From sequence record PV467748.1: a DNA stretch of 64,000 nucleotides, one strand, 5' to 3'. Both the position numbers and the translations under genes were made by a program. Below, piece after piece: positions 8,415 to 54,941 of this stretch (position 1 is the first letter of the stretch; each line of letters opens with the position of its first letter). Below the pieces are notes generated by a model that saw only the letters and a program-made list of their open reading frames with translations, did no database searches and was not told the origin of the DNA. The stretch is from a phage.

Positions 8415-9974
8415 ATGAAAAAGAATGCATTAGTTCAAAAATGGTCCGCTCTGCTGGAAAACGAAGCCCTTCCTGAAATCGTGGGTGCTTCTAAACAAGC
8501 TATCATCGCTAAAATTTTCGAAAACCAGGAACAAGACATCCTGACTGCTCCGGAATACCGTGATGAAAAAATCTCTGAAGCATTTGGTTCTTTCCTGACC
8601 GAAGCTGAAATTGGTGGTGACCACGGTTATGATGCTACCAATATCGCAGCTGGCCAGACTTCTGGTGCTGTAACTCAGATTGGGCCGGCAGTAATGGGTA
8701 TGGTTCGTCGTGCTATTCCTCATCTGATTGCTTTTGATATTTGTGGTGTTCAGCCTCTGAATAACCCTACCGGCCAGGTATTTGCCCTTCGTGCAGTTTA
8801 TGGTAAAGACCCTATCGCTGCTGGCGCTAAAGAAGCTTTCCATCCGATGTATTCTCCGGACGCTATGTTCTCTGGTCAGGGCGCTGCTCAGACTTTTGAA
8901 GCACTGGCTGCAAGCAAAGTTCTGGAAGTTGGTAAAATTTATTCTCACTTCTTCGAAGCTACCGGTGCTGCACACTTCCAGGCTGTTGAAGCTGTAACCG
9001 TTGATGCTGCTGCTACCGATGCCGCTAAACTGGATGCTGCTGTTACCGCTTTGATTGAAGCTGGTAAGTTGGCTGAATTGGCTGAAGGTATGGCTACTTC
9101 TATCGCTGAACTTCAGGAAGGCTTTAACGGTTCTACTGATAACCCGTGGAACGAAATGGGCTTCCGTATCGATAAACAAGTTATCGAAGCTAAATCTCGT
9201 CAGCTGAAAGCAAGCTACTCTATCGAACTGGCACAGGACCTTCGTGCAGTACACGGTATGGATGCAGATGCTGAACTGTCCGGTATCCTTGCTACCGAAA
9301 TTATGCTCGAAATCAACCGTGAAGTTATCGATTGGATTAACTACTCTGCACAGGTTGGTAAATCTGGTATGACCAACACCGTTGGCGCTAAAGCTGGTGT
9401 GTTTGACTTCCAGGACCCGATTGATATCCGTGGTGCTCGTTGGGCCGGTGAGAGCTTTAAAGCCCTTCTGTTCCAGATTGATAAAGAAGCAGCCGAAATC
9501 GCTCGTCAGACCGGTCGTGGTGCTGGTAACTTCATCATCGCTTCCCGTAACGTAGTTAACGTACTGGCTGCAGTTGATACTTCTGTAAGTTATGCAGCTC
9601 AAGGTCTGGGTCAGGGTTTCAACGTTGACACAACCAAAGCAGTATTTGCCGGTGTTCTTGGTGGTAAATATCGTGTTTACATCGACCAGTATGCTCGTTC
9701 CGATTACTTCACCATCGGTTATAAAGGTTCCAACGAAATGGACGCAGGTATCTACTATGCTCCGTACGTTGCACTGACTCCGCTGCGTGGTTCCGATCCG
9801 AAGAACTTCCAACCGGTAATGGGCTTCAAAACTCGTTACGGTATCGGTATTAACCCGTTCGCTGACCCAGCTGCTCAGGCGCCTACCAAACGTATTCAGA
9901 ATGGTATGCCTGACATCGTTAACAGCCTCGGTCTGAATGGTTACTTCCGTCGCGTATATGTTAAAGGTATCTAA
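8415..9974 (+). CDS. 23: major capsid protein
   Basis: 519 aa; strong similarity to T4 gp23. Confidence 0.97.
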   Translation: MKKNALVQKWSALLENEALPEIVGASKQAIIAKIFENQEQDILTAPEYRDEKISEAFGSFLTEAEIGGDHGYDATNIAAGQTSGAVTQIGPAVMGMVRRAIPHLIAFDICGVQPLNNPTGQVFALRAVYGKDPIAAGAKEAFHPMYSPDAMFSGQGAAQTFEALAASKVLEVGKIYSHFFEATGAAHFQAVEAVTVDAAATDAAKLDAAVTALIEAGKLAELAEGMATSIAELQEGFNGSTDNPWNEMGFRIDKQVIEAKSRQLKASYSIELAQDLRAVHGMDADAELSGILATEIMLEINREVIDWINYSAQVGKSGMTNTVGAKAGVFDFQDPIDIRGARWAGESFKALLFQIDKEAAEIARQTGRGAGNFIIASRNVVNVLAAVDTSVSYAAQGLGQGFNVDTTKAVFAGVLGGKYRVYIDQYARSDYFTIGYKGSNEMDAGIYYAPYVALTPLRGSDPKNFQPVMGFKTRYGIGINPFADPAAQAPTKRIQNGMPDIVNSLGLNGYFRRVYVKGI

Positions 9975-9989
9975 TATAAACCTTATTAT

Positions 9990-10007
9990 GGGAGACTTCG
10001 GTCTCCC
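9990..10007 (+). terminator. intrinsic terminator after gene 23
   Basis: GGGAGAC-TTCG-GTCTCCC hairpin followed by a T-rich tract. Confidence 0.7.
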
Positions 10008-10022
10008 ATTCTTGTTTCTATA

Positions 10023-10289
10023 CTATGCAATCTTAACACGATGGTTGATGATATCACGGAAGTCAATACGATTTTCTTGGATTTTCAGCCAGTTACCAGA
10101 TTTGTCTTTGGTATGGGTAGAGTATTCACCGTTCCACCAGAAGTCGGTAGCATAAGCCATGGCTTCGTATTTCTTAACTAGTGCATTCACTGCATTACCG
10201 TTAGGATTGGAACCATATTTTTCTACCAGGGCTTTGATGTCTTTATCAAGAGCGGAAAGAGTAGTACGAATAAAGTTTAACTTGTTCAT
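10023..10289 (-). CDS. hypothetical early protein in the 23/24 intergenic slot
   Basis: ORF with GAGGAG SD before the internal Met (MNKLNFIRTT...); own early-type promoter upstream; no recognisable domain. Confidence 0.5.
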   Translation of the reverse strand: MNKLNFIRTTLSALDKDIKALVEKYGSNPNGNAVNALVKKYEAMAYATDFWWNGEYSTHTKDKSGNWLKIQENRIDFRDIINHRVKIA

Positions 10290-10318
10290 TTTTAATCTCC
10301 TCATGTTTTGATAGGTCT

Positions 10319-10348
10319 ATAGTAACATGTGATAACCTTGCTGTAAAC
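10319..10348 (-). promoter_or_regulatory. early sigma70-type promoter (GTTTAC, spacer, TACTAT)
   Basis: Reverse complement reads GTTTAC...TACTATAGACCTATC; member of a repeated promoter/leader family. Confidence 0.5.
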
Positions 10349-10354
10349 AACTTT

Positions 10355-10362
10355 TATAAATA
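10355..10362 (+). promoter_or_regulatory. late promoter TATAAATA upstream of gene 24
   Basis: Exact TATAAATA. Confidence 0.55.
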
Positions 10363-10390
10363 AACATATACCCTCAATAAGGAAAGCGCA

Positions 10391-11674
10391 ATGGCAAAGA
10401 TTAACGAATTACTGCGCGAGTCAACAACTACTTCTAGCAACTCATTGGGTCGCCCTAATCTTGTTGCTTTGACCCGTGCTACAACCAAATTGATTTACCG
10501 TGATATTATTGCTGAACAACGTACTAGCCAGCCTATTGCTGCATTGTATGGTGTCAAATATCTTACTCCTGATAATGAATTTAGCTTCCAAACTGGTGCC
10601 GTTTATGGTGGTGAAGTTGGTTCTAAAGACCGTGAAACTATCCCGGAACTCACAGATAAGGCCCAGGCTATTGCCAAGGGTGAATATTTCAAGTATCAGA
10701 ACATAGTTTATAAGGCTCTTCAAGCAAGCCCACTCGCATCCACTAGCGCTACAGGATTGGCTGATGCTCTTCAAGAAGGTTTAGTGTCATTAACATGTCG
10801 TCTGGTTCCGGACGCTGCTCATACCACTAAATTCGAAGCGAGTGATGTAGAAATCTCTGATGCTGTATTCCAGGTAAATAAATGGAATGCTCCTGTTAAG
10901 ACTCGTAAATTGAAGACTGCTTTGACAGTAGAATTGGCACAGGATATGGAATCAAATGGATTCGACGCCCCTGCATTCTTAGAAGACCTCCTGGCTACAG
11001 TAATGGCAGATGAAATTAATAAAGACGTTCTGCAATCCTTGATTACGGTATCTAAACGTTATAAAGTTACCGGTGTATCTGATAACGGCATCATAGATTT
11101 GACTTATGATAGTGCTCCGGAATCTGCACGTAAACTTTATGAAATTGTTTGTGAGATGAATTCTGAAATCCAGAAAACTACTTCTTATTCTGGTACGTTT
11201 GTTGTGGCTTCAAGTCGTGTGGCTGCAATGCTTGCAGGTTCTGGCTGGTTAAAACATAAACCTGAAGATAATAATTGGCTCCCAGAAACCGCCTATGGGT
11301 ATTTGTTGAATGGATTACCTCTGTTCTGTGACGTTAACAGCCCGTTGGATTATGTTATCGTCGGTGTTAAAGAGAACTATGGTGGTAATGAAGTTGTCGG
11401 TTCTATTTTCTATGCCCCGTATACAGAAGGCCTGGATTTAGACGACCAAGAACACGTTGGCGCTTATAAGGTTATTGTCGACCCGGATTCATTACAGCCT
11501 TCTATTTCTCTGATGGTTCGTTATGCACTGTCCGCTAATCCATACACCGTAGCTAAAGACGATAAAGAAGCTCGTGTTATAGATGCAACTAATATGGATT
11601 TAATGGCGGGCCAGAGTAATATGTCTTATCTGCTTGGTGTTAAACTTCCAGCAATTATTTACGAGGCTGATTAA
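10391..11674 (+). CDS. 24: capsid vertex protein gp24 (ortholog copy)
   Basis: 427 aa; very close to T4 gp24. Confidence 0.95.
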   Translation: MAKINELLRESTTTSSNSLGRPNLVALTRATTKLIYRDIIAEQRTSQPIAALYGVKYLTPDNEFSFQTGAVYGGEVGSKDRETIPELTDKAQAIAKGEYFKYQNIVYKALQASPLASTSATGLADALQEGLVSLTCRLVPDAAHTTKFEASDVEISDAVFQVNKWNAPVKTRKLKTALTVELAQDMESNGFDAPAFLEDLLATVMADEINKDVLQSLITVSKRYKVTGVSDNGIIDLTYDSAPESARKLYEIVCEMNSEIQKTTSYSGTFVVASSRVAAMLAGSGWLKHKPEDNNWLPETAYGYLLNGLPLFCDVNSPLDYVIVGVKENYGGNEVVGSIFYAPYTEGLDLDDQEHVGAYKVIVDPDSLQPSISLMVRYALSANPYTVAKDDKEARVIDATNMDLMAGQSNMSYLLGVKLPAIIYEAD

Positions 11675-14312: not shown

Positions 14313-14397
14313 AACAATTCTCTCGTTGAGCCGGTAAAACTCATCTTAACATAGAATTTTTAACTTGTAAACAGGAATTTTGTACTTTAATGCAAAA

Positions 14398-15274: not shown

Positions 15275-15946
15275 TTATTTTAAAGTGACAAAAGATGAGT
15301 TACGAGTTTCTCGTACTAGAACAGACCCATTACGATTGATGTAATAAATCAAGCTGAATAGTGTTTGGTGTGCGGTAGGATGTTGGAAAGCAGTTGGACG
15401 TTCTTTCCAATCCGGAGTCTCAGAAATCCATTGGTAAATCCACCAAGGAACAGTGCAATAACCTGGGTTCTTACCGATAAGCAAAAGATTAGGACTGAAG
15501 TTTTCAGGTAAAGAGAATACAGGTTTTTCAGATTCAACAACCTTGGCTACAGCCTTTTTGAATTTCTCTTCGTCAAATGGAACATCCTCTTCGATAATCT
15601 CTACCTTAGGAAGTTCGGCTACCTCTATTACTTCAACAACTGCCTCAGGAGCATCGAACAACAGGGTTGCTTCTTCTTTAGCTGGTTCTACACCTTCGAT
15701 AAAATCATTATCACCAGTGAGTTCGTCAGCAGCATCAATCAAATCAGAAATAGACAACCCGTCTGTTTCCGGAAGTGGTTCGTCAGCCAAGGCTTTAAGG
15801 CCTTCAGAGATATCGATAATCAAATTATCAAACGAACGGGTTTTCTTAAGTTTTAAACCGAACTGTTCGCCGTATTCGATTAACTTAGCTTTAGCTTCTT
15901 TTTTGTCTTTGAGTGCACGAAGCTCTTCAATATATTGAGTATCCAT
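15275..15946 (-). CDS. inh: inhibitor of prohead protease
   Basis: 223 aa; N-terminus resembles T4 Inh; synteny hoc-inh. Confidence 0.8.
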   Translation of the reverse strand: MDTQYIEELRALKDKKEAKAKLIEYGEQFGLKLKKTRSFDNLIIDISEGLKALADEPLPETDGLSISDLIDAADELTGDNDFIEGVEPAKEEATLLFDAPEAVVEVIEVAELPKVEIIEEDVPFDEEKFKKAVAKVVESEKPVFSLPENFSPNLLLIGKNPGYCTVPWWIYQWISETPDWKERPTAFQHPTAHQTLFSLIYYINRNGSVLVRETRNSSFVTLK

Positions 15947-15965
15947 AATTAGTCTCTTGTTGGTG

Positions 15966-15973
15966 TATAAATA
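15966..15973 (+). promoter_or_regulatory. late promoter TATAAATA upstream of uvsW
   Basis: Exact TATAAATA. Confidence 0.5.
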
Positions 15974-15979
15974 TAACTA

Positions 15980-15987
15980 TATTTATA
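15980..15987 (-). promoter_or_regulatory. late promoter (TATAAATA on the - strand) upstream of inh
   Basis: Reverse complement is TATAAATA; divergent from the uvsW late promoter. Confidence 0.45.
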
Positions 15988-16001
15988 ACTGAGAATTACT
16001 T

Positions 16002-17498
16002 ATGCAAATTCAAGTACATTTTGATAATTTTAGTCATGTCCGTATCGAGTGTGATGAATCCACATTCTACGAACTCAGAGACTATTTTAGCTTTGAAGCT
16101 GATGGGTATAAATTCAACCCTAAATTTCGTTATGGGCAATGGGATGGACGTATTCGTCTTCTGGATTATAACCGTAAACTTCCTTATGGATTGGTTCCGC
16201 AAATTAAAAAGTTCGCCGAACAATTTGAATATTCTCTGTGGATTGACCCACGTATTCTTGAACAGGAAGATATTTCTCGTGAAGATTTTGACTCATGGGT
16301 AGCTTCTCAAGAAATTTATTCAGGGTCTACCAAGATTGAGCCTCATTGGTATCAGAATGAAGCTGTATACAACGGCCTGACAAAACGTCGCGCAATTCTG
16401 AATTTACCTACATCCGCAGGTAAATCATTGATTCAGGCGCTCCTGAGTCGATATTACGTTGAGAACTATGAAGGTAAAATTCTTATATTAGTTCCTACTA
16501 CTGCACTTGTCGACCAGATGATTAATGACTTCATCGATTATAGATTGTTCCCTAAAGCAGAAATGCTTGGTATTCGTTCAGGTACTGCTCGTGATTCTGA
16601 TGCAATGATTTACGTTTCAACTTATCAAACTGCTATCAAGCAACCTAAAGAATGGTTTGCTCAGTTTGGTATGTTTATGAACGATGAATGCCACTTGGCT
16701 ACAGGTAAATCTATTTCTACTATCATCGAAGGCCTAACCAACTGTATGTTTAAATTCGGTTTGTCTGGTTCTTTAAAAGATGGTAAAGCTAATTTAATGC
16801 AATATATGGGTTTGTTTGGTGATGTGTTTAAGCCAGTATCCACCTCCCAGTTAATGGAAGAAGGACAGGTTACCGACCTTAAAATCAACAGTATTTTCCT
16901 TCGATACCCAGACGAATTCACTGTTAAGATGAAAGGTAAAGATTACCAATCAGAAATCAAGGTCATTACTAAGGCTACTCGTCGTAATAAATGGGTTGCT
17001 AATTTAGCTGTTAAACTCGCTAAGAAAGAAGAGAACGTATTCCTGATGTTTAAAAACATCGAACACGGTAAAACTCTTTTTGAAATGGTTAAAGAGCAAC
17101 ATAAAGAAGTTTATTACGTATCAGGTGAAGTTAATACCGAAACGCGTAATGCTCTGAAAGTAATGGCGGAAAATGGTAAGGGTATTATTGTTGTTGCAAG
17201 TTATGGTGTGTTCTCTACTGGTATTTCCGTTAAGAACCTTCATCACGTTGTATTTGCCCACCCAGTAAAATCCAAAATCATTGTACTCCAGACAATTGGT
17301 CGTGTACTCCGTAAACATGCCTCTAAATCAACAGCACAGGTATGGGATATCATCGACGACATGGGTGTTAAGCCTAAATCAGCTACGGCTAAAAAGAAAT
17401 ATGTTCATTTGAACTACGCCCTCAAACACGCTTTAGAACGTATTCAACGTTATGCTGATGAGAAATTTAATTACGTAATGAAACAGGTGGATTTATGA
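16002..17498 (+). CDS. uvsW: UvsW DNA/RNA helicase (SF2)
   Basis: 498 aa; helicase motifs (LNLPTSAGKS, DECH); high similarity to T4 UvsW. Confidence 0.95.
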   Translation: MQIQVHFDNFSHVRIECDESTFYELRDYFSFEADGYKFNPKFRYGQWDGRIRLLDYNRKLPYGLVPQIKKFAEQFEYSLWIDPRILEQEDISREDFDSWVASQEIYSGSTKIEPHWYQNEAVYNGLTKRRAILNLPTSAGKSLIQALLSRYYVENYEGKILILVPTTALVDQMINDFIDYRLFPKAEMLGIRSGTARDSDAMIYVSTYQTAIKQPKEWFAQFGMFMNDECHLATGKSISTIIEGLTNCMFKFGLSGSLKDGKANLMQYMGLFGDVFKPVSTSQLMEEGQVTDLKINSIFLRYPDEFTVKMKGKDYQSEIKVITKATRRNKWVANLAVKLAKKEENVFLMFKNIEHGKTLFEMVKEQHKEVYYVSGEVNTETRNALKVMAENGKGIIVVASYGVFSTGISVKNLHHVVFAHPVKSKIIVLQTIGRVLRKHASKSTAQVWDIIDDMGVKPKSATAKKKYVHLNYALKHALERIQRYADEKFNYVMKQVDL

Positions 17499-25812: not shown

Positions 25813-26103
25813 TTATTTACGGAACGAAATGAAACCTGCTGCAGTCATTAGTGGTTGCTTTTTATCAAACACCGTAACTGAAATAGGAGCTTCAGATTCG
25901 AGTTGTCCTGTCACTACACCGTTAAAAATGTTTTCGGTTTGTTCTGGATGAGAAAAATTCTCAACAGGCCGGATATCAAACTGTTTGTCTTCACCGAAAA
26001 CTCGACGTAATTCATTACCCACTGCACTGTCAAACTCTTCAGAAGCAGGGATAACGTTTTCAACCACCAGTTCTTGACCATTAAAACGGAATGCAGATTT
26101 CAT
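25813..26103 (-). CDS. hypothetical protein downstream of the alt paralogs
   Basis: 96 aa; GAGGAG SD; early-type promoter upstream. Confidence 0.5.
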   Translation of the reverse strand: MKSAFRFNGQELVVENVIPASEEFDSAVGNELRRVFGEDKQFDIRPVENFSHPEQTENIFNGVVTGQLESEAPISVTVFDKKQPLMTAAGFISFRK

Positions 26104-26131
26104 AATGTTCTCCTCATGTTTGTGTAAGGTA

Positions 26132-26161
26132 ATAGTACCACATCCTTGTGGTGTTGTAAAC
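26132..26161 (-). promoter_or_regulatory. early sigma70-type promoter (GTTTAC ... TACTAT)
   Basis: Reverse complement GTTTAC, 18-nt spacer, TACTAT. Confidence 0.4.
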
Positions 26162-39849: not shown

Positions 39850-40400
39850 TAGATGGTCTCCAACTTAAGTTGTTTGGTAGTGGTAGCTTGGGTAACATCG
39901 CCTTTAACAATATAACACACTTGTTGGAACGACTTAGTCAAAAGCTCTTCGGCTTGACGATCGGCTTGTTCCTTTGTGTTATGGCGAGAATGAACTTCAA
40001 TCTTACCATTTTTAACGATAAGCACTTTCCAATCCGCAGTGGCTTTTACTGGTTTAGGCTCATTTTCAGGAATACTCACCGAGGCCAGTGGACGTACTAC
40101 TTCAATAAAGTAATCGAATTCATGGCCAAAAAAGCCTGAGGAATTAAAAAGAACAGCATTTGCATCATCAGGATTACCTGTGATTTTGCTCAGGTCAACA
40201 AACCTCAACTCATCGTATACACGAATTCGGCTTACACGTTCACGCCCATTATGGTAATCAATTTCAACTTCAAACGGATTCATACCTACATACTTGGCAA
40301 AAGCTGTATTGAGGCCATAAGCGCCGTTATTAGTGAATTTGTTTTTAGTGTATTCACTACCGAACTTATAAAACTTACGCTCTTCAAAGAACTTGCTCAT
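39849..40400 (-). CDS. hypothetical protein
   Basis: Start at MSKFFEERKF after GAGGAAATCGAA SD; early promoter upstream. Confidence 0.5.
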   Translation of the reverse strand: MSKFFEERKFYKFGSEYTKNKFTNNGAYGLNTAFAKYVGMNPFEVEIDYHNGRERVSRIRVYDELRFVDLSKITGNPDDANAVLFNSSGFFGHEFDYFIEVVRPLASVSIPENEPKPVKATADWKVLIVKNGKIEVHSRHNTKEQADRQAEELLTKSFQQVCYIVKGDVTQATTTKQLKLETI

Positions 40401-40430
40401 TTCGATTTCCTCATTTGTTTCGGTAGGACT

Positions 40431-40460
40431 ACTATACCACAGTCCTACCATGATGTAAAC
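40431..40460 (-). promoter_or_regulatory. early-type promoter (GTTTAC ... TATAGT) with -10 in the loop of a 9-bp hairpin
   Basis: GGTAGGACT / AGTCCTACC stem at 40422-40449 flanks the -10. Confidence 0.45.
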
Positions 40461-41154: not shown

Positions 41155-42379
<1,225 letters not shown>

Positions 42380-42414
42380 AATAATTTCCTCAAATTTTAT
42401 AATCCGTAGGAGCA

Positions 42415-42443
42415 TTATACTCTGCTCCCAAGAGTTTGTAAAC
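42415..42443 (-). promoter_or_regulatory. early promoter GTTTAC-17-TATAAT
   Basis: Consensus-like hexamers on the - strand. Confidence 0.5.
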
Positions 42444-43187: not shown

Positions 43188-43675
43188 TTGGTAATAATCT
43201 CGATGATGTCATCACGTGACAGGGAATTAATAAGAACCGTTTTAGGATTTTCACACTGAATTTTATACGTTTCAAACATGAAACACAATTCTTCAGCGGT
43301 ATGGTAAGGACTTGAAATGCCAAGGCGATTAAACTTGTCGCTTAATGGGTCACAAATCAAATAGAACGTGATGCCTGAGATTTTAACATTAGGCTGGCTG
43401 ATGTTAATGAATACCTCGGCATCGTATTTGGAAAGGTTGTTTTGGAGAAACTCGACCATAGAGTTAACAGCTTCCGGCATGGCTTCACGCTTTTCTTCTG
43501 CATAACGGGTAGAGTATTCTTTTTGCTTAATTTTCTTTTTAGCATTTTTGGCTAAAGTAACACGAAGATCGGTCAGGTAACCTACTGCACGAGAACCTTT
43601 AAAAACTTGGATGCCGTCAGTAGAGTCACCAAAAGCCTTAACAACCATTTCGTTAGTAATCATTTGCATATTCAT
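43175..43675 (-). CDS. alc: Alc-like protein (host transcription inhibitor), assigned by synteny
   Basis: About 166 aa from an internal Met after AGGAG SD; sits between the spanins and rnlA as T4 alc does. Confidence 0.55.
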   Translation of the reverse strand: MNMQMITNEMVVKAFGDSTDGIQVFKGSRAVGYLTDLRVTLAKNAKKKIKQKEYSTRYAEEKREAMPEAVNSMVEFLQNNLSKYDAEVFINISQPNVKISGITFYLICDPLSDKFNRLGISSPYHTAEELCFMFETYKIQCENPKTVLINSLSRDDIIEIITKCLN

Positions 43676-43704
43676 TTGTTTTCTCCTCATTAGTTGGTAA
43701 GTCT

Positions 43705-43733
43705 ATACTAACACATCATGAGGAGATGTAAAC
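43705..43733 (-). promoter_or_regulatory. early promoter (GTTTAC-17-TAGTAT)
   Basis: Member of the repeated cassette family. Confidence 0.45.
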
Positions 43734-48938: not shown

Positions 48939-50620
<1,682 letters not shown>

Positions 50621-50645
50621 TTTATTCTCCTTAGTTGACAAGGCT

Positions 50646-50675
50646 ATAGTATCACTACCATAGCCTGATGTAAAC
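50646..50675 (-). promoter_or_regulatory. early promoter (GTTTAC ... TACTAT) inside inverted repeat AGGCTAT/ATAGCCT
   Basis: Cassette family member. Confidence 0.45.
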
Positions 50676-50903
50676 TTATTTTTGAATTAAGCCCATATAA
50701 AATTTAGCGTCTTCCGGGTGCATACCGTCACAATACTCGCCAGCCATAAAGCGGGTAAGGTCTTCAAGAGGACCTTGAACTTCAATTTGCATACTACAGA
50801 ATTGTGTGTCTTTGATATAAGTCATAGTCAAAGAAGGATAACTATTACGGATAACTTCGTAAGTGTATTCAAAATCAACGATATCAATATTAACTTTAGC
50901 CAT
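50676..50903 (-). CDS. hypothetical protein
   Basis: 75 aa; GAGGAAAATAAAATG initiation region. Confidence 0.45.
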
Positions 50904-50932
50904 TTTATTTTCCTCATGTAGTTGATAGGTCT

Positions 50933-50961
50933 ATAGTATCATGACTACAGACCTTGTAAAC
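50933..50961 (-). promoter_or_regulatory. early promoter GTTTAC-17-TACTAT
   Basis: Cassette family member; leader nearly identical to 51616-51652. Confidence 0.5.
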
Positions 50962-50963
50962 AC

Positions 50964-51224
50964 TTATTTTTGAATTTTATCGAGCCACTTACCGAGTTTA
51001 ATCATTTCTTTGGTAGCTTTTTCCATACTTCTGAATTTAACCAGTAAAGGTTGGGCATCAACACCCATAACTAAGCTGGTTACAAGACTATGTTCACCTA
51101 CAAGCCATAAAGAATACGTTTGAATATCGAGCCCGTAATTTCGGTCTTTATGGACCCGTACACCCATCACTTCAAATTTCTCACTGGCTTTTTCTACTGC
51201 ATCCAGGAAATCATCTTTAGTCAT
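50964..51224 (-). CDS. hypothetical protein (start uncertain)
   Basis: ORF downstream of the 129-aa gene. Confidence 0.4.
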   Translation of the reverse strand: MTKDDFLDAVEKASEKFEVMGVRVHKDRNYGLDIQTYSLWLVGEHSLVTSLVMGVDAQPLLVKFRSMEKATKEMIKLGKWLDKIQK

Positions 51225-51225
51225 A

Positions 51226-51615
51226 TTAGGCCTTAAAAGTTTTTTGCAAAAGTTCAATGATTTGGTCAACGTTCTGTTCGGTGACAATGCAATGGATTTG
51301 AGTCACACCTGCCTTAGCAATAGGCGCATCGATTTCTTTATCTTCCACAACATATTCACGGAAGCAATAGAACTCATCTTCGTGCAATTCAAAATAATTT
51401 GGCGCTAACCCAACTTCATTATAAATCTCGCCGTTAGCGCATTCGATTTCAGTCACAAATTTGTCGCCATCCATGGTCAACATATCCTTTACTTCAAACC
51501 AACCGCCGTTGTCTTGGATAAGGTCGACCATGCTTTTATTATTTTCATATTCGTCCATTTCAATAAAGTCTTTAATGCATTCAGGGCGAAGTTCGTATTT
51601 TTTACCGATTTCCAT
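51226..51615 (-). CDS. hypothetical acidic protein
   Basis: 129 aa; cassette promoter/leader upstream. Confidence 0.5.
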   Translation of the reverse strand: MEIGKKYELRPECIKDFIEMDEYENNKSMVDLIQDNGGWFEVKDMLTMDGDKFVTEIECANGEIYNEVGLAPNYFELHEDEFYCFREYVVEDKEIDAPIAKAGVTQIHCIVTEQNVDQIIELLQKTFKA

Positions 51616-51644
51616 TTTTATTTCCTCATGTAGTTGATAGGTCT

Positions 51645-51673
51645 ATAGTATCATGTTTAAAGGCATTGTAAAC
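51645..51673 (-). promoter_or_regulatory. early promoter GTTTAC-17-TACTAT
   Basis: Cassette family member. Confidence 0.5.
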
Positions 51674-51725
51674 CATTAAGTGCCAAAAAGGGAAGACCGA
51701 AGTCTTCCCATTATAAATCAATAAC

Positions 51726-52631
51726 TTATAGACCAGCTAACAAATCGTCCAGGCCGTCGTCATCAGAAGGACTTACTGATGGTTCAGGAGTAGTGGAACG
51801 AGTTGGTGTAGACGGTTTGGAATCATAGGCATCAAGGTCTGCACTGAATGCGTCCAGGTCATCACCAATCTTATCAGCAGCTGCAGAAGCTTTAGCGGCA
51901 GCACCACCAAGAGCAGCAGTACCAACAACTTTCTTAAACTTGGCTTCGTTAGTTTCGAACGATTTGAACTCGAGCAGTTTAGAAAGGTCGTGCATTTCTT
52001 CCATCAATTTGGCTTGGTAAGCTTCATCATTGATGTTAGGAATTTCAGACTGGCCCATGAATTTGGAATCGTCGTAGTTTTTGAAGTCGCCAACTTTCTT
52101 AGATTTCAGTACGAAGTTCGCACCATCAAACGGACATGTTACGTCAACCGGCACTTCACCGATATCAGTATCAACTTCAACCATCTGGTTGATTTTATCC
52201 ATAATTTTCTGACCGAAACGGAATTTAAACACTTTACCTTCGTTAGCAGGCACTGCACTATCCTTAATAACAAGGATGTTAGCCCAGAAGGAAGTTTTAC
52301 GTTTCATCAGCTTGTATTCGGCATTATTAGTATTATACGTATCGTTCTGGTTCATGTATTTACATACAGGACAAGAATCGAAATCACCGTGAGTAGACGT
52401 ACAGTTTTCAATATACCATTGACCATTTTTCTTAAAGCCGTGGTTAACGAGCTTAATGAATGGAGATGGATTTTCTTCGTTTTTCGAAGGTAGGAAACGA
52501 ATTACCGCAGTACCAACACCGTTGTCATCTTTCAATTTCCATTCAGCTTTATCATCGGAAGAGAAAGAAGAACCACCTTTCATTGCAGACAGTTGAGCAG
52601 CCAGTTGGGAAGGGTCTTTACGTTTAAACAT
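51726..52631 (-). CDS. 32: single-stranded DNA-binding protein
   Basis: 301 aa; near-identical N-terminus and zinc-binding region vs T4 gp32; acidic C-terminal tail. Confidence 0.95.
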
Positions 52632-52695
52632 ATTATTTACCTTAGCAGATTTAGCAGTTGTATTTTATTGACAGTTTTTAACAGATTGAGTTAGT

Positions 52696-52720
52696 ATATT
52701 AACACAGTTGATTTGAAGCA
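52696..52720 (-). promoter_or_regulatory. candidate MotA-dependent middle promoter for gene 32
   Basis: Reverse complement ATGCTTCA (MotA-box-like), 11 nt, TAATAT. Confidence 0.35.
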
Positions 52721-53374
52721 TTAAAACTTGCAAGATTTGATAGTTTCAATGAACAATTTACGAGCTTCTAAATTATCGATTATAAGAATTTTCTTATAAG
52801 CATTTAATTTAGTCGAATACTTAGACCACACCAAATCGTTGGTCTGTTCATCATGTTTATTTATTATGTCCATAAATGAATCAAGCAAAATAAACGTTTC
52901 GAATGAAATAACATTCGATTGAAGGAGCTTAAAAATATAGCTCGAATTAACTTTTTTATTATAATCAAAAATTTCAGAAAGCGCTTGAACTTCCACTTTC
53001 TTACTGAAATAATAGATGTTTTTGATATCGTCCTCAAAAACTTGTTTTATTCTTTTAAGTCTACCGATATATTCTCGGTAAAAGACTAAGGCGTCAGCAT
53101 CACTGATGTCGCCAATCCATGCGTCTTGGTTAGCCACCAAGTTACTCATGAAGATAAGAGCAAGCTCTTTCAAAGTGTATTTATCACTCAATTTCTCGAA
53201 GAAATATTTGTCACGACGTTTTTGGTAAGCCGTATCAGAGATTCGCATGACCCAGTTATATTTTATAACGTCGTATTTGGCGTTGAAGTGATGTTTGAGC
53301 ATTAAGTATAGTGAATATACGCTCTTACCATTCACCATACGGTTATTGTTTGGTGGCATGCGAATCTTAATCAT
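52721..53374 (-). CDS. 59: helicase loader
   Basis: 217 aa; very high similarity to T4 gp59. Confidence 0.92.
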   Translation of the reverse strand: MIKIRMPPNNNRMVNGKSVYSLYLMLKHHFNAKYDVIKYNWVMRISDTAYQKRRDKYFFEKLSDKYTLKELALIFMSNLVANQDAWIGDISDADALVFYREYIGRLKRIKQVFEDDIKNIYYFSKKVEVQALSEIFDYNKKVNSSYIFKLLQSNVISFETFILLDSFMDIINKHDEQTNDLVWSKYSTKLNAYKKILIIDNLEARKLFIETIKSCKF

Positions 53375-53673
53375 AACAAGAAATCCAGGGTATTAGTTTT
53401 TTGCGTTCGTGCCATTGAAGGACGAAGCAAGTTATCATCAATGGCCTCGTTCATAATTTTATCAATAATTCCTGCAGGCAAATAACGGGCAAAGTTACCT
53501 TCAGGGATGCTGTTCTCTTCCAACCATGCGGTAGCCGCTTCGAGATAGCTACATCCTTCGGCCTCAACAAAGGCCTCAATATCAAGGCCATTCTGTTGTT
53601 TATTTACCAATACATGGACGGGTTCAGAAGCGGTATTAACCGCTCCATCAAAATCATTCAAAGATTGTGTCAT
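53371..53673 (-). CDS. 33: late-transcription accessory protein
   Basis: 100 aa; C-terminus ...LLRPS...TLDFLL as in T4 gp33. Confidence 0.75.
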   Translation of the reverse strand: MTQSLNDFDGAVNTASEPVHVLVNKQQNGLDIEAFVEAEGCSYLEAATAWLEENSIPEGNFARYLPAGIIDKIMNEAIDDNLLRPSMARTQKTNTLDFLL

Positions 53674-53933: not shown

Positions 53934-54881
53934 TTAATAGAAATCAGCTACTGTAGCAGTTAGTTTAGACAAACCAGATTTAACGAAATAAGGATAAACT
54001 TTAGATTTCGAAGGTTTGTTATACGTATTATATCTTTCAGTAATTAAAGCAACAATATCATCTGGAATAAAGTCCATATCAATTAAGATTTGGTTTTCAC
54101 AGAAACGTTCATATTGTTCCTCAGTAAGAAGTGTTTTAATTATATCATGGTCATAATAATTCAGAGCAATTGCTTCAAGTTCCTTGGCACGAGTGCTAGG
54201 AGTACGTTCGCCTTCAACCATAGTCAACCAATAATCACCACGAACTTTAATACTCGCAACGTTATCCTTGCGGTCGCCTTTAACAACCTTAGTCACGCAA
54301 TCAAGCAGAGCATCGCCAGATTTTGTTTTGACGAATTTTTTCTGCATTGGAGACCATTGTTTTACACCAGGGAATTTATGAAGTTGGGTAAAGTCACCAT
54401 CCGAAGAACCGATCATAACAGGATGACCTAAAGCCGTAAGGATACGAGTCAATACAGCAATATGGTCATCAGCCTCGATTGTATCGATATTCATAACAAT
54501 ATAAGGCATATTATGTTCAAGCTCATCAACAATAATATGCATTGCCGTAAATAAGCCTTCCCAATCAAATGGTGATTCGTCACGAGCCTTAGCACGGTTT
54601 TTCTTATAATAAGAAGAATAACGACGACGCCAATAACCTGATTTAGAGTTATCAACACAAATGATTAGTTGGTTGTAACCTTGTTTTTTAAAGTCTTTAA
54701 TATTTTTCTTAATCGAATTCAGCACGAGGTGTCGAAGCATTGCTGTAGTTACTTTAGGAAATCCAGCGTTTTCACCAAATTCTTGGAAGGCTGCAGCCAT
54801 AATGATTTGGCTGAAATCTAGGAGTAAAAACCCGTCTTTTTGTTGGTCTTCTTCAGGAAGTAAAAAATCTAAATCGTTCAT
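53934..54881 (-). CDS. rnh: RNase H (5'-3' exonuclease, FEN family)
   Basis: Start at MNDLDFLL; acidic metal-binding residues typical of FEN; synteny. Confidence 0.9.
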   Translation of the reverse strand: MNDLDFLLPEEDQQKDGFLLLDFSQIIMAAAFQEFGENAGFPKVTTAMLRHLVLNSIKKNIKDFKKQGYNQLIICVDNSKSGYWRRRYSSYYKKNRAKARDESPFDWEGLFTAMHIIVDELEHNMPYIVMNIDTIEADDHIAVLTRILTALGHPVMIGSSDGDFTQLHKFPGVKQWSPMQKKFVKTKSGDALLDCVTKVVKGDRKDNVASIKVRGDYWLTMVEGERTPSTRAKELEAIALNYYDHDIIKTLLTEEQYERFCENQILIDMDFIPDDIVALITERYNTYNKPSKSKVYPYFVKSGLSKLTATVADFY

Positions 54882-54912
54882 ATGAACCTCTGTCCAATTA
54901 GTGTAGAGGTTC

Positions 54913-54941
54913 ATTATATCATGACCCTAGAAGAAGTAAAC
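54913..54941 (-). promoter_or_regulatory. early promoter GTTTAC-17-TATAAT for rnh
   Basis: Consensus hexamers; overlaps a 10-bp inverted repeat spanning the rnh start. Confidence 0.5.

Follow-up and report, generated by a model that had tools for sequence, protein, structure and literature searches.

The closest described relatives of the elements considered here, a family of promoter-leader cassettes of about 60 bp on the minus strand of a 64,000-nucleotide stretch of phage DNA (sequence record PV467748.1; this whole stretch is hereafter the window), are the promoter-early stem-loops (PeSLs) described by the Krisch laboratory for phi1/RB49 (Arbiol 2010, PMC2839356). A PeSL begins in an A/T-rich tract that holds the stop codon of the preceding gene; a sigma-70-type promoter and a stem-loop come next, and a Shine-Dalgarno sequence (SD) with ATG closes it. 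The place of the stem-loop varies: some subclasses have it between the -35 and -10 or overlapping the -10, and it can also overlap the -35, lie upstream, or stand just before the +1. In a lacZ assay one such stem-loop lowered read-through to about the same extent as the rrnB T1 terminator, and recombination between neighboring PeSLs gave mini-circles. PeSLs were later extended to PST/T4 and nt-1/KVP40 (Comeau 2014, PMC4122927), where the T4-type pattern is given as TTTACW-N17-TAYWAT with stems just upstream of the promoter. In the available parts of both papers (PMC2839356, PMC4122927), phages of the JS98 type receive only a passing mention. The T4 early-promoter consensus is itself reviewed in PMC2988021 and PMC1524935. 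A further point of reference is provided by T4 e, soc, 49, and I-TevI, for which long upstream transcripts hide the SD or AUG in a helix and a promoter within the helix yields translatable transcripts without the 5' arm (PMC3014915).

Our analysis places nine or ten cassettes of ~60 bp in the window, ahead of early genes. We regard it as probable that the early promoters of JS98-like phages are built as PeSL cassettes of this size, in which a hairpin acts on read-through RNA and insulates the downstream gene, and that these cassettes recombine. The pattern GTTTAC-N16-19-TACTATAG occurs four times in the window, against 0.00 expected from 100 shuffles. A window scan with the looser pattern GTTTAC-N16-19-TAnnnT plus SD and ATG returned copies at 10348, 26161, 40460, 42443, 43733, 50675, 50961, and 51673 (each named here by its upstream end), and added one at 54941, before rnh, which the first-pass annotation of this DNA had missed, as well as a weaker one at 14372. 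Every SD-linked copy is on the minus strand; two plus-strand matches to the pattern lie inside coding sequence and lack an SD. The cassette layout is a stop codon, an A-rich tract, GTTTAC, a 17/18-nt spacer ending in TGn, TAnnnT, (A)TCAAC, GAGGA, and ATG. For most window copies the upstream stop codon is -1 to 5 nt from the -35, with the SD and ATG 44-55 nt past the -35. The tract upstream of the promoters is A/T-rich (e.g., aaaaataagt), and a consensus scan scores the three promoters of the frd region as sigma-70-like with TG before the -10. The genes behind the cassettes are frd.1-3, alt.-3, and alc, plus open reading frames (ORFs) without a Pfam match (the Pfam families found being FRD2, FRD3, DUF5417, and ALC). 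By sequence, the cassettes carry the T4-type early-promoter pattern. The copies listed in the first-pass annotation are all present on the minus strand, and its term "promoter-leader cassettes" is apt, given this pattern, the SD and ATG, and the position before orthologs of T4 early genes.

In the frd region each of three small genes stands behind the shared motif, as had been proposed, with the qualification that the frd.1 copy is a variant (CTCCTTAG..GACAAGGCTATAGTA) of the string originally quoted. On the minus strand the three sequences between the genes read GTTTAC-aatgcctttaaacatga-TACTAT-agacctatcaactacatgaggaaataaaaATG (stretch one, where aatgcctttaaacatga is the frd.2 promoter spacer), GTTTAC-aaggtctgtagtcatga-TACTAT-agacctatcaactacatgaggaaaataaaATG (stretch two), and GTTTAC-atcaggctatggtagtga-TACTAT-agccttgtcaactaaggagaataaaATG (stretch three). 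The frd.1 promoter and leader (cassette A, 50618..50675) has its -35 at 50675-50670, immediately after the frd.3 stop codon TAA, its -10 TACTAT at 50651-50646, the SD AAGGAG at 50632-50627, and the ATG at 50620-50618. The frd.3 promoter and leader (cassette B, 50901..50961), whose upstream stop codon is 2 nt from the -35 at 50961-50956, has its -10 TACTAT at 50938-50933, a predicted +1 at ~50926, the SD at 50915-50911, and the ATG at 50903-50901. The frd.2 promoter and leader (cassette C, 51613..51673) comprises a -35 GTTTAC at 51673-51668, a 17-nt spacer, a -10 TACTAT at 51650-51645, a predicted +1 at ~51638, the SD GAGGA at 51627-51623, and the ATG at 51615-51613; it sits behind a terminator and has no hairpin (fold z = -0.9; no inverted repeat).

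Folding RNA from the -35 to the ATG, with z-scores taken against dinucleotide shuffles, gave values of -4.1 for 50675 (minimum free energy [MFE] -18.4), -2.9 for 50961 (MFE -15.2), -2.7 for 40460, -2.3 for 42443, and -3.9 for 43733. The same comparison found no significant hairpin in copies 51673, 26161, and 10348. The short inverted repeats noted earlier are real and in part longer than first stated: that of cassette A spans 11 nt (50641-50651/50656-50666; 91%, 4-nt loop GUGA), and cassette B has one that the first reading had not listed (50927-50937/50944-50954; 11 nt, 91%, 6-nt loop). The 40460 copy carries GGTAGGACT/AGTCCTACC (40422-40430/40441-40449; 9 nt, 100%) around a 10-nt loop containing the -10; the 42443 copy has the 6-nt GGGAGC/GCTCC (42409-42414/42423-42428) with the -10 in the loop; and the 43733 copy, before alc, has an imperfect 18-nt repeat (43682-43699/43709-43726; 78%). 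Placement of the -10 within the loop holds at 40460 and 42443 and fails at 50675 and 50961, where the -10 is in the 3' arm.

Spacers pair better with their own leaders than with those of other promoters, and in about a third of the promoters the spacer is complementary to sequence downstream in the same promoter. The promoter sample covered the window, 135 kb of JS98, and 100 kb of T4, the set for the first duplex test being n = 28; a larger set (n = 70) added T4-like IMG/VR loci, with redundancy removed at 85%. An exact IMG/VR scan for GTTTAC-N17/18-TACTATAG had returned mostly chance matches in unrelated contigs, and only loci with at least two promoter-like sites were reused. Each spacer was tested against its own -10-to-ATG segment and compared with the same segment of every other promoter (chimeras). 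Own pairs had a duplex energy of -10.95 kcal/mol versus -8.44 for chimeras in the first set (permutation p = 5e-5), and -10.3 versus -7.2 among the 70 non-redundant promoters (z = -10.9). Strong duplexes (-13 kcal/mol or better) were formed by 24/70 own pairs and 5.3% of chimeras, and, when the register was fixed so that the loop consisted of the -10 hexamer and 4 nt more, at least five contiguous pairs were formed by nine promoters, against 0.9 expected. The arms vary in sequence and remain paired, as in AGGTCT/AGACCT, AGGCT/AGCCT, GGGCT/AGCCC, and GAGGAC/GTCCTC. The GGGAGC/GCTCC stem of 42443 corresponds to GGGACC/GGTCCC in a JS98 paralog, a compensatory change. The covariation evidence comes from paralogs, since ortholog promoters within Dhakavirus are either too similar or wholly replaced. 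T4 itself has stems of 10-15 bp around the -10 before dmd, motB.2, ndd.4, alc, alt.-3, frd.1, cd.2, and 30.7.

The hairpins are strongly tied to genomic context. A strong hairpin is present in 22/34 promoters whose -35 lies no more than 7 nt from an upstream ORF stop codon and in 2/36 of the others (Fisher p = 1.2e-7), an association that holds in the Dhakavirus and T4 sets taken separately, and promoters behind intrinsic terminators have weak spacer-leader complementarity. The reported region follows this rule, as the 51673 copy, 16 nt behind the gene 32 terminator, has no hairpin, and the 50961 and 50675 copies, which abut the stop codons of orf232 and frd.3, have 11-bp stems. There is also a preference for one strand. 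G.U pairs make up 29/264 pairs in the strong duplexes, so that these helices fold better as mRNA-sense RNA: the sense minus antisense MFE is -1.74 kcal/mol versus 0.03 in dinucleotide shuffles (p = 2e-4), and the sense fold is better in 13/14 strong hairpins that do not touch the SD. This strand asymmetry favors mRNA-sense RNA over a DNA cruciform or protein site as the target of selection, and, together with the near restriction of hairpins to ORF-abutting promoters, it points to spacers being under selection as RNA.

The geometry of the hairpins suggests how they might act. Every 5' arm lies upstream of the assumed +1, so that a cassette's own transcript could not form the hairpin and only RNA arriving from upstream could. 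In this scheme the hairpin would insulate the downstream gene from upstream transcription, taking the place of a terminator for which there is no room where genes abut, and each small gene would be expressed mainly from its own immediate-early promoter. Two forms can be distinguished. In 14/24 strong hairpins, including those of 50675, 50961, 40460, and 42443, the stem ends between -1 and +8 and the SD is free; with both arms upstream of ~+8, such a structure may serve as an attenuator or a 3'-end structure. The other 10/24, among them window copy 43733, take in the whole SD. In this group the first spacer bases after GTTTAC (CTCC, CTCCT, CTCCTCAT, CTCCTGTAG, and CTCCATTAG) pair with the leader (GGAG, AGGAG, ATGAGGAG, CTACAGGAG, and CTAATGGAG, respectively), and extended stems such as CTCCTGTAG/CTACAGGAG and CTCCATTAG/CTAATGGAG support covariation alongside the duplex energies. 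In the alc cassette it is the spacer CTCCTCAT that pairs with the SD-containing ATGAGGAG, both arms lying within the 18-nt repeat. A spacer with an anti-SD of this type (43733, and 54941 in a variant layout) would bury the SD and silence translation on read-through RNA; the SD is predicted to be free of pairing with a probability of 0.37 on the long RNA, compared with 0.76 on transcripts beginning at +1. In the variant layout, the rnh cassette (54879..54941, found by pattern scan and folding), the 5' arm lies at the -10/discriminator (54914-54905), in the bases that directly follow the -10 (AUGAACCUCU), and the 3' arm AGAGGUUCAU covers the SD and reaches the AUG (54891-54882). Transcripts from rnh's own promoter would miss most of this 5' arm, and the arrangement is kept in JS98 and T4.

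The SD also bears on a different feature of T4-type leaders. In T4, the RegB endoribonuclease cleaves early mRNAs at GGAG, a motif found inside the SD of four cassettes (10297-10302, 26110-26115, 43683-43688, and 50627-50632), the remaining cassettes having GAGGAA without GGAG. JS98 encodes regB. In the 43733 copy the GGAG of the SD would be base-paired in read-through RNA.

A hairpin confined to read-through RNA could have a purpose other than insulation, either as an RNase E-type processing site or stabilizer or in translational coupling through the terminating ribosome. In the processing version, a stem-loop preceded by unpaired AU-rich sequence at the stop codon would allow polycistronic early RNA to be cut into stable units. 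Such a role would suit a stop codon that is -1 to 7 nt away from the -35 and an A/U-rich tract immediately before the stem, and the RNA-sense asymmetry and the context rule fit it as well as they fit attenuation. We nevertheless consider this explanation unlikely, as the 5' arm usually starts 8-20 nt beyond the stop codon, which is at the limit of what a terminating ribosome can reach or past it, and as a published PeSL stem-loop blocked transcription in a lacZ transcriptional fusion (PMC2839356). Coupling by a terminating ribosome was itself discarded, the 5' arm being mostly too far from the stop codon.

The cassettes are related to one another beyond what the promoter consensus accounts for. 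As a control, each alignment column was shuffled among promoters, a procedure that leaves the consensus intact and breaks the linkage of one column with another. The 50961 and 51673 copies are identical over 31 nt (-17..+14), and 0/1000 column shuffles reproduced this; the possibility raised earlier, that the copies are no more similar than the consensus would make them, is contradicted by this result. In JS98, the first 12 spacer bases differ at no more than one position in five unlinked promoter pairs (0.09 expected), and five promoter pairs have no more than one difference over -17..+14, against 0 expected. In T4 (L126/L127), a separate sub-family of near-identical promoter-leader cassettes, tttcacaaaacGTTTAC...GGTACTATACAACTATCAACTACTGATAC, occupies no fewer than four sites, mostly behind terminators and without hairpins, and the T4 alc and alt.-3 promoters have a near-identical SD-burying hairpin in common. 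A 32-nt exact match to positions 10296-10327, in the -10/leader of the window's 10348 cassette, occurs in the 168-kb phage vB_EcoM-pEB20, which is otherwise unlike that kilobase; the match is at an unannotated spot, and cassette segments seem common to more distant T4-type phages.

Near-identical cassettes would be substrates for the phage's efficient homologous recombination, by which they could be homogenized and the genes they flank moved, duplicated, or deleted, and comparisons among relatives show several rearrangements that fit this. In QL01 (L129, 2440-2504) the frd.3 promoter has the frd.2-promoter spacer aatgcctttaaacatga in place of its hairpin spacer and has no hairpin, which looks, from the sequences, like conversion of one cassette by another. 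In relative L133, a module of cassette plus frd.3 is transposed to the other side of orf232, with one breakpoint at the 5' edge of the -35 (window positions 50961/50960) and the other where frd.3 ends (50682). Both L133 and L135 have an extra frd.2-like gene where the frd.1 cassette sits. Ahead of it (~2728-2760 in L133 and L135) stands GGGAACAT-gataat-ATGTTCCC, whose perfect 8-bp stem encloses a -10-like loop; it has no GTTTAC -35 and may be a degraded cassette or one of a different class. The leaders of cassettes 42443 and 51673 are, in JS98, the exact starting points of extra genes (insertions at 42380 and 51615). One of these is an ORF of 148 aa (MKILWYVENANN...) that the JS98 record does not annotate, right behind a cassette (L125, NC_010105.1 120524-170523, ~15580-16027, minus strand); the window lacks it, and the cassette concerned (42377-42443) there drives the gene that comes next.

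A rival account sees plain early promoters only, whose similarity and inverted repeats are side effects of a strong lineage-specific consensus combined with recent duplication or gene conversion; quasi-palindrome correction in replication may have sharpened them, and the hairpins themselves would be without function. Identical or near-identical cassettes at unlinked sites and their swapping between orthologous positions speak for this account, as do the palindromes CTATAG and TCATGA in the consensus itself and the several cassettes without a hairpin. It appears quite improbable all the same, because own spacer/leader pairs are far more complementary than chimeras of the same consensus, because arms that differ in sequence remain paired, and because the hairpins are bound to context (22/34 versus 2/36). 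Furthermore, the G.U pairs favor one strand, unlike the outcome expected of palindrome correction at the DNA level.

Two further readings derive from the first-pass annotation, which had offered a combined terminator-promoter unit or an operator-like element. The first agrees with the published PeSL model, and the context and strand asymmetry fit a read-through function; its terminator half fares less well, as there is no U-tract and ~40% of the strong hairpins sequester the SD. A canonical terminator was rejected for lack of U-tracts after the embedded hairpins. The second, in which a phage or host protein bound to the -10 inverted repeat, or to a cruciform, would switch early promoters off or on and could be connected with T4 early-promoter shut-off, is highly improbable: the symmetry is centered on or beside the -10, the start region TATAGACCTATCAAC is conserved, and the shut-off mechanism is described as not completely understood (PMC3014915), but there is no fixed conserved palindrome or single recognition sequence, as arms differ and covary, stems range over 5-15 bp and loops over 4-10 nt or more, and the register shifts between promoters, the sense RNA is better structured than the antisense, and promoters behind terminators lack the repeat though they are of the same class and equal shut-off would be expected.

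Several observations weigh against our preferred interpretation, in which the hairpin of a PeSL cassette insulates a gene from read-through RNA. The promoters form sub-families that arose by duplication, and the 70 used here are not independent even after de-duplication at 85%, which inflates the p-values. The +1 was assumed to lie 7 nt past the -10, a position backed only by a conserved A there. Three to four of the nine to ten window cassettes have no hairpin. In the consensus scan the embedded hairpins did not score as terminator-like, having AUCAAC or a similar sequence where a U-tract would be. The accessibility measure saw no promoter-specific occlusion of the SD: chimeras hide it equally, CTCC being a generic element of spacers and GGAG of leaders. 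Finally, only ~2/8 indels relative to JS98 in the 25-56 kb region fall at a cassette; the others are at plain gene boundaries, so the cassettes are frequent junctions and not the only ones.

The remaining cassettes of the window, all on the minus strand, can be assigned as follows. The alc promoter cassette (43673..43733) is overlapped at its -35 by the rnlA stop codon. Pattern scan and folding identified a cassette at 42377..42443 with -10 TATAAT and another at 40398..40460 with -10 TATAGT. The cassettes at 26101..26161, before alt.-3 (DUF5498), and at 10287..10348 have no significant hairpin. The latter drives a 93-aa minus-strand ORF inserted between the major capsid and capsid vertex genes, and this gene is confined to ~79 records, hundreds of other T4-like phages matching the flanking capsid genes only.

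Nucleotide comparison of 4.5 kb around the frd cassettes gave QL01 as the closest match (95.6%), with JS98, JS10, IME08, and others at 92-95%. Dhakavirus matches are 93-96% identical, with synteny across frd/32, and 36-56 kb is likewise Dhakavirus-like, with many indels between relatives. Judged from these comparisons, the window is a Dhakavirus (JS98-like, T4-type) genome. Its capsid-region kilobase (9700-10700) is 99.9% identical to phage NC-G and its frd region (49000-53500) at best 95.6% identical to any record (QL01), so that the source genome is a mosaic relative to sequenced Dhakaviruses. The gene order on the minus strand, from synteny with JS98 and QL01 and from Pfam, is gene 32 - frd.2 - orf232 - frd.3 - frd.1 - frd - td. 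Gene 32 (51726-52631, by synteny) is followed by an intrinsic terminator at 51690..51709 (GGGAAGACTTCGGTCTTCCC then TTTTT), 16 nt upstream of the frd.2 promoter, which the consensus scan found to be the sole minus-strand terminator-like site within 49700-52800. The frd.2 homolog (51226..51615, 129 aa, Pfam FRD2) is followed by an orf232 homolog (50964..51224, 86 aa) without its own promoter, whose start 1 nt past the frd.2 stop codon suggests translational coupling. The frd.3 homolog (50676..50903, 75 aa, Pfam Phage_FRD3) and the frd.1 homolog (50381..50620, 79 aa, DUF5417) complete the set. A 271-aa ORF with a GTG start that overlaps frd.1 in the mechanical ORF list (49792-50607, minus strand) is an artifact of an open upstream frame, the true frd start being near 50372 by comparison with QL01 and JS98. 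An Rfam search of 49000-53000 returned no family at E <= 1.

The cassettes are of practical use in annotation, as they would mark immediate-early transcription units in JS98-like phages, several of which are candidate therapeutic phages, and they flag sites where accessory genes are gained, lost, or moved. A wider generalization is that in T-even-type phages, including T4, the early-promoter spacer doubles as the 5' arm of a hairpin formed only on read-through, under a general compaction rule of "terminator upstream, or hairpin inside promoter". We put this forward tentatively and consider it doubtful in so general a form. If selection on spacers as RNA holds up, it would explain why the spacers of T4-type early promoters are not free to vary, and it would offer a simple, testable design rule for insulating genes in very compact or engineered phage genomes. 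For the anti-SD form, translation of a small gene would depend on initiation at its own promoter, giving a brief immediate-early pulse and silence on later read-through RNA.

Comparison with the known systems shows how much of this is shared. Like intrinsic terminators, the embedded hairpins put a stable stem-loop where the upstream gene ends, and the two kinds of structure occur in a complementary pattern. Unlike terminators, the cassettes have no U-tract after the stem, a stretch already taken up by the constrained discriminator and start region, and their loops are often 10 nt. The resemblance to T4 early promoters extends to GTTTAC at -36 to -31, an A-rich UP-like tract, GT/TG before the -10, TAnnnT, and placement before orthologs of alc, frd.1, frd.2, frd.3, alt.-3, and rnh, with the difference that the lineage studied here prefers TACTAT, then AGACCTATCAAC. 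The T4 reviews consulted (PMC2988021 and PMC1524935) make no mention of spacer-leader complementarity, and a T4 transcription review makes none of structure at early promoters. The gate of e, soc, 49, and I-TevI has the same predicted geometry as 43733, 54941, and the 10/24 strong hairpins that take in the SD, whereas 50675, 50961, 40460, and 42443 leave the SD out. The internal promoter is late in that system (gp55, TATAAATA) and delays expression; here it is of the early sigma-70 type, and the logic would instead restrict expression to the cassette's own early transcripts. If this holds, the cassettes would be an early-promoter counterpart of the late-promoter gate.

In common with published PeSLs, the cassettes have the same order of parts, many copies per genome, and G-T pairs in their stems, and they may be similarly tied to small genes and to insertions, deletions, and rearrangements between close relatives. 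The differences are that the -35 here is GTTTAC of the T4 type and not TTGACA, that the G-run/C-run stems of RB49 are not found here, and that stems described as upstream of the promoter for T4/PST are located around the -10 both here and in T4 itself. No mention of SD-burying stems or of the abutting-ORF rule was found in the accessible parts of PMC2839356 and PMC4122927, and the word "translation" is absent from the 2010 text (PMC2839356). The rule that a spacer serves as a hairpin arm was likewise not found stated in the available portions of the PeSL papers and T4 literature (PMC2839356, PMC4122927, PMC2988021, PMC1524935, PMC3014915). Taken together, the parts and their arrangement in the sequence identify the cassettes as PeSL-type elements, a published kind, in a genus where such elements have barely been described. 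What may be new is quantitative: a rule that ties hairpins to ORF-abutting promoters, the bias toward sense RNA, a subclass that buries the SD, and the presence of these features in T4.

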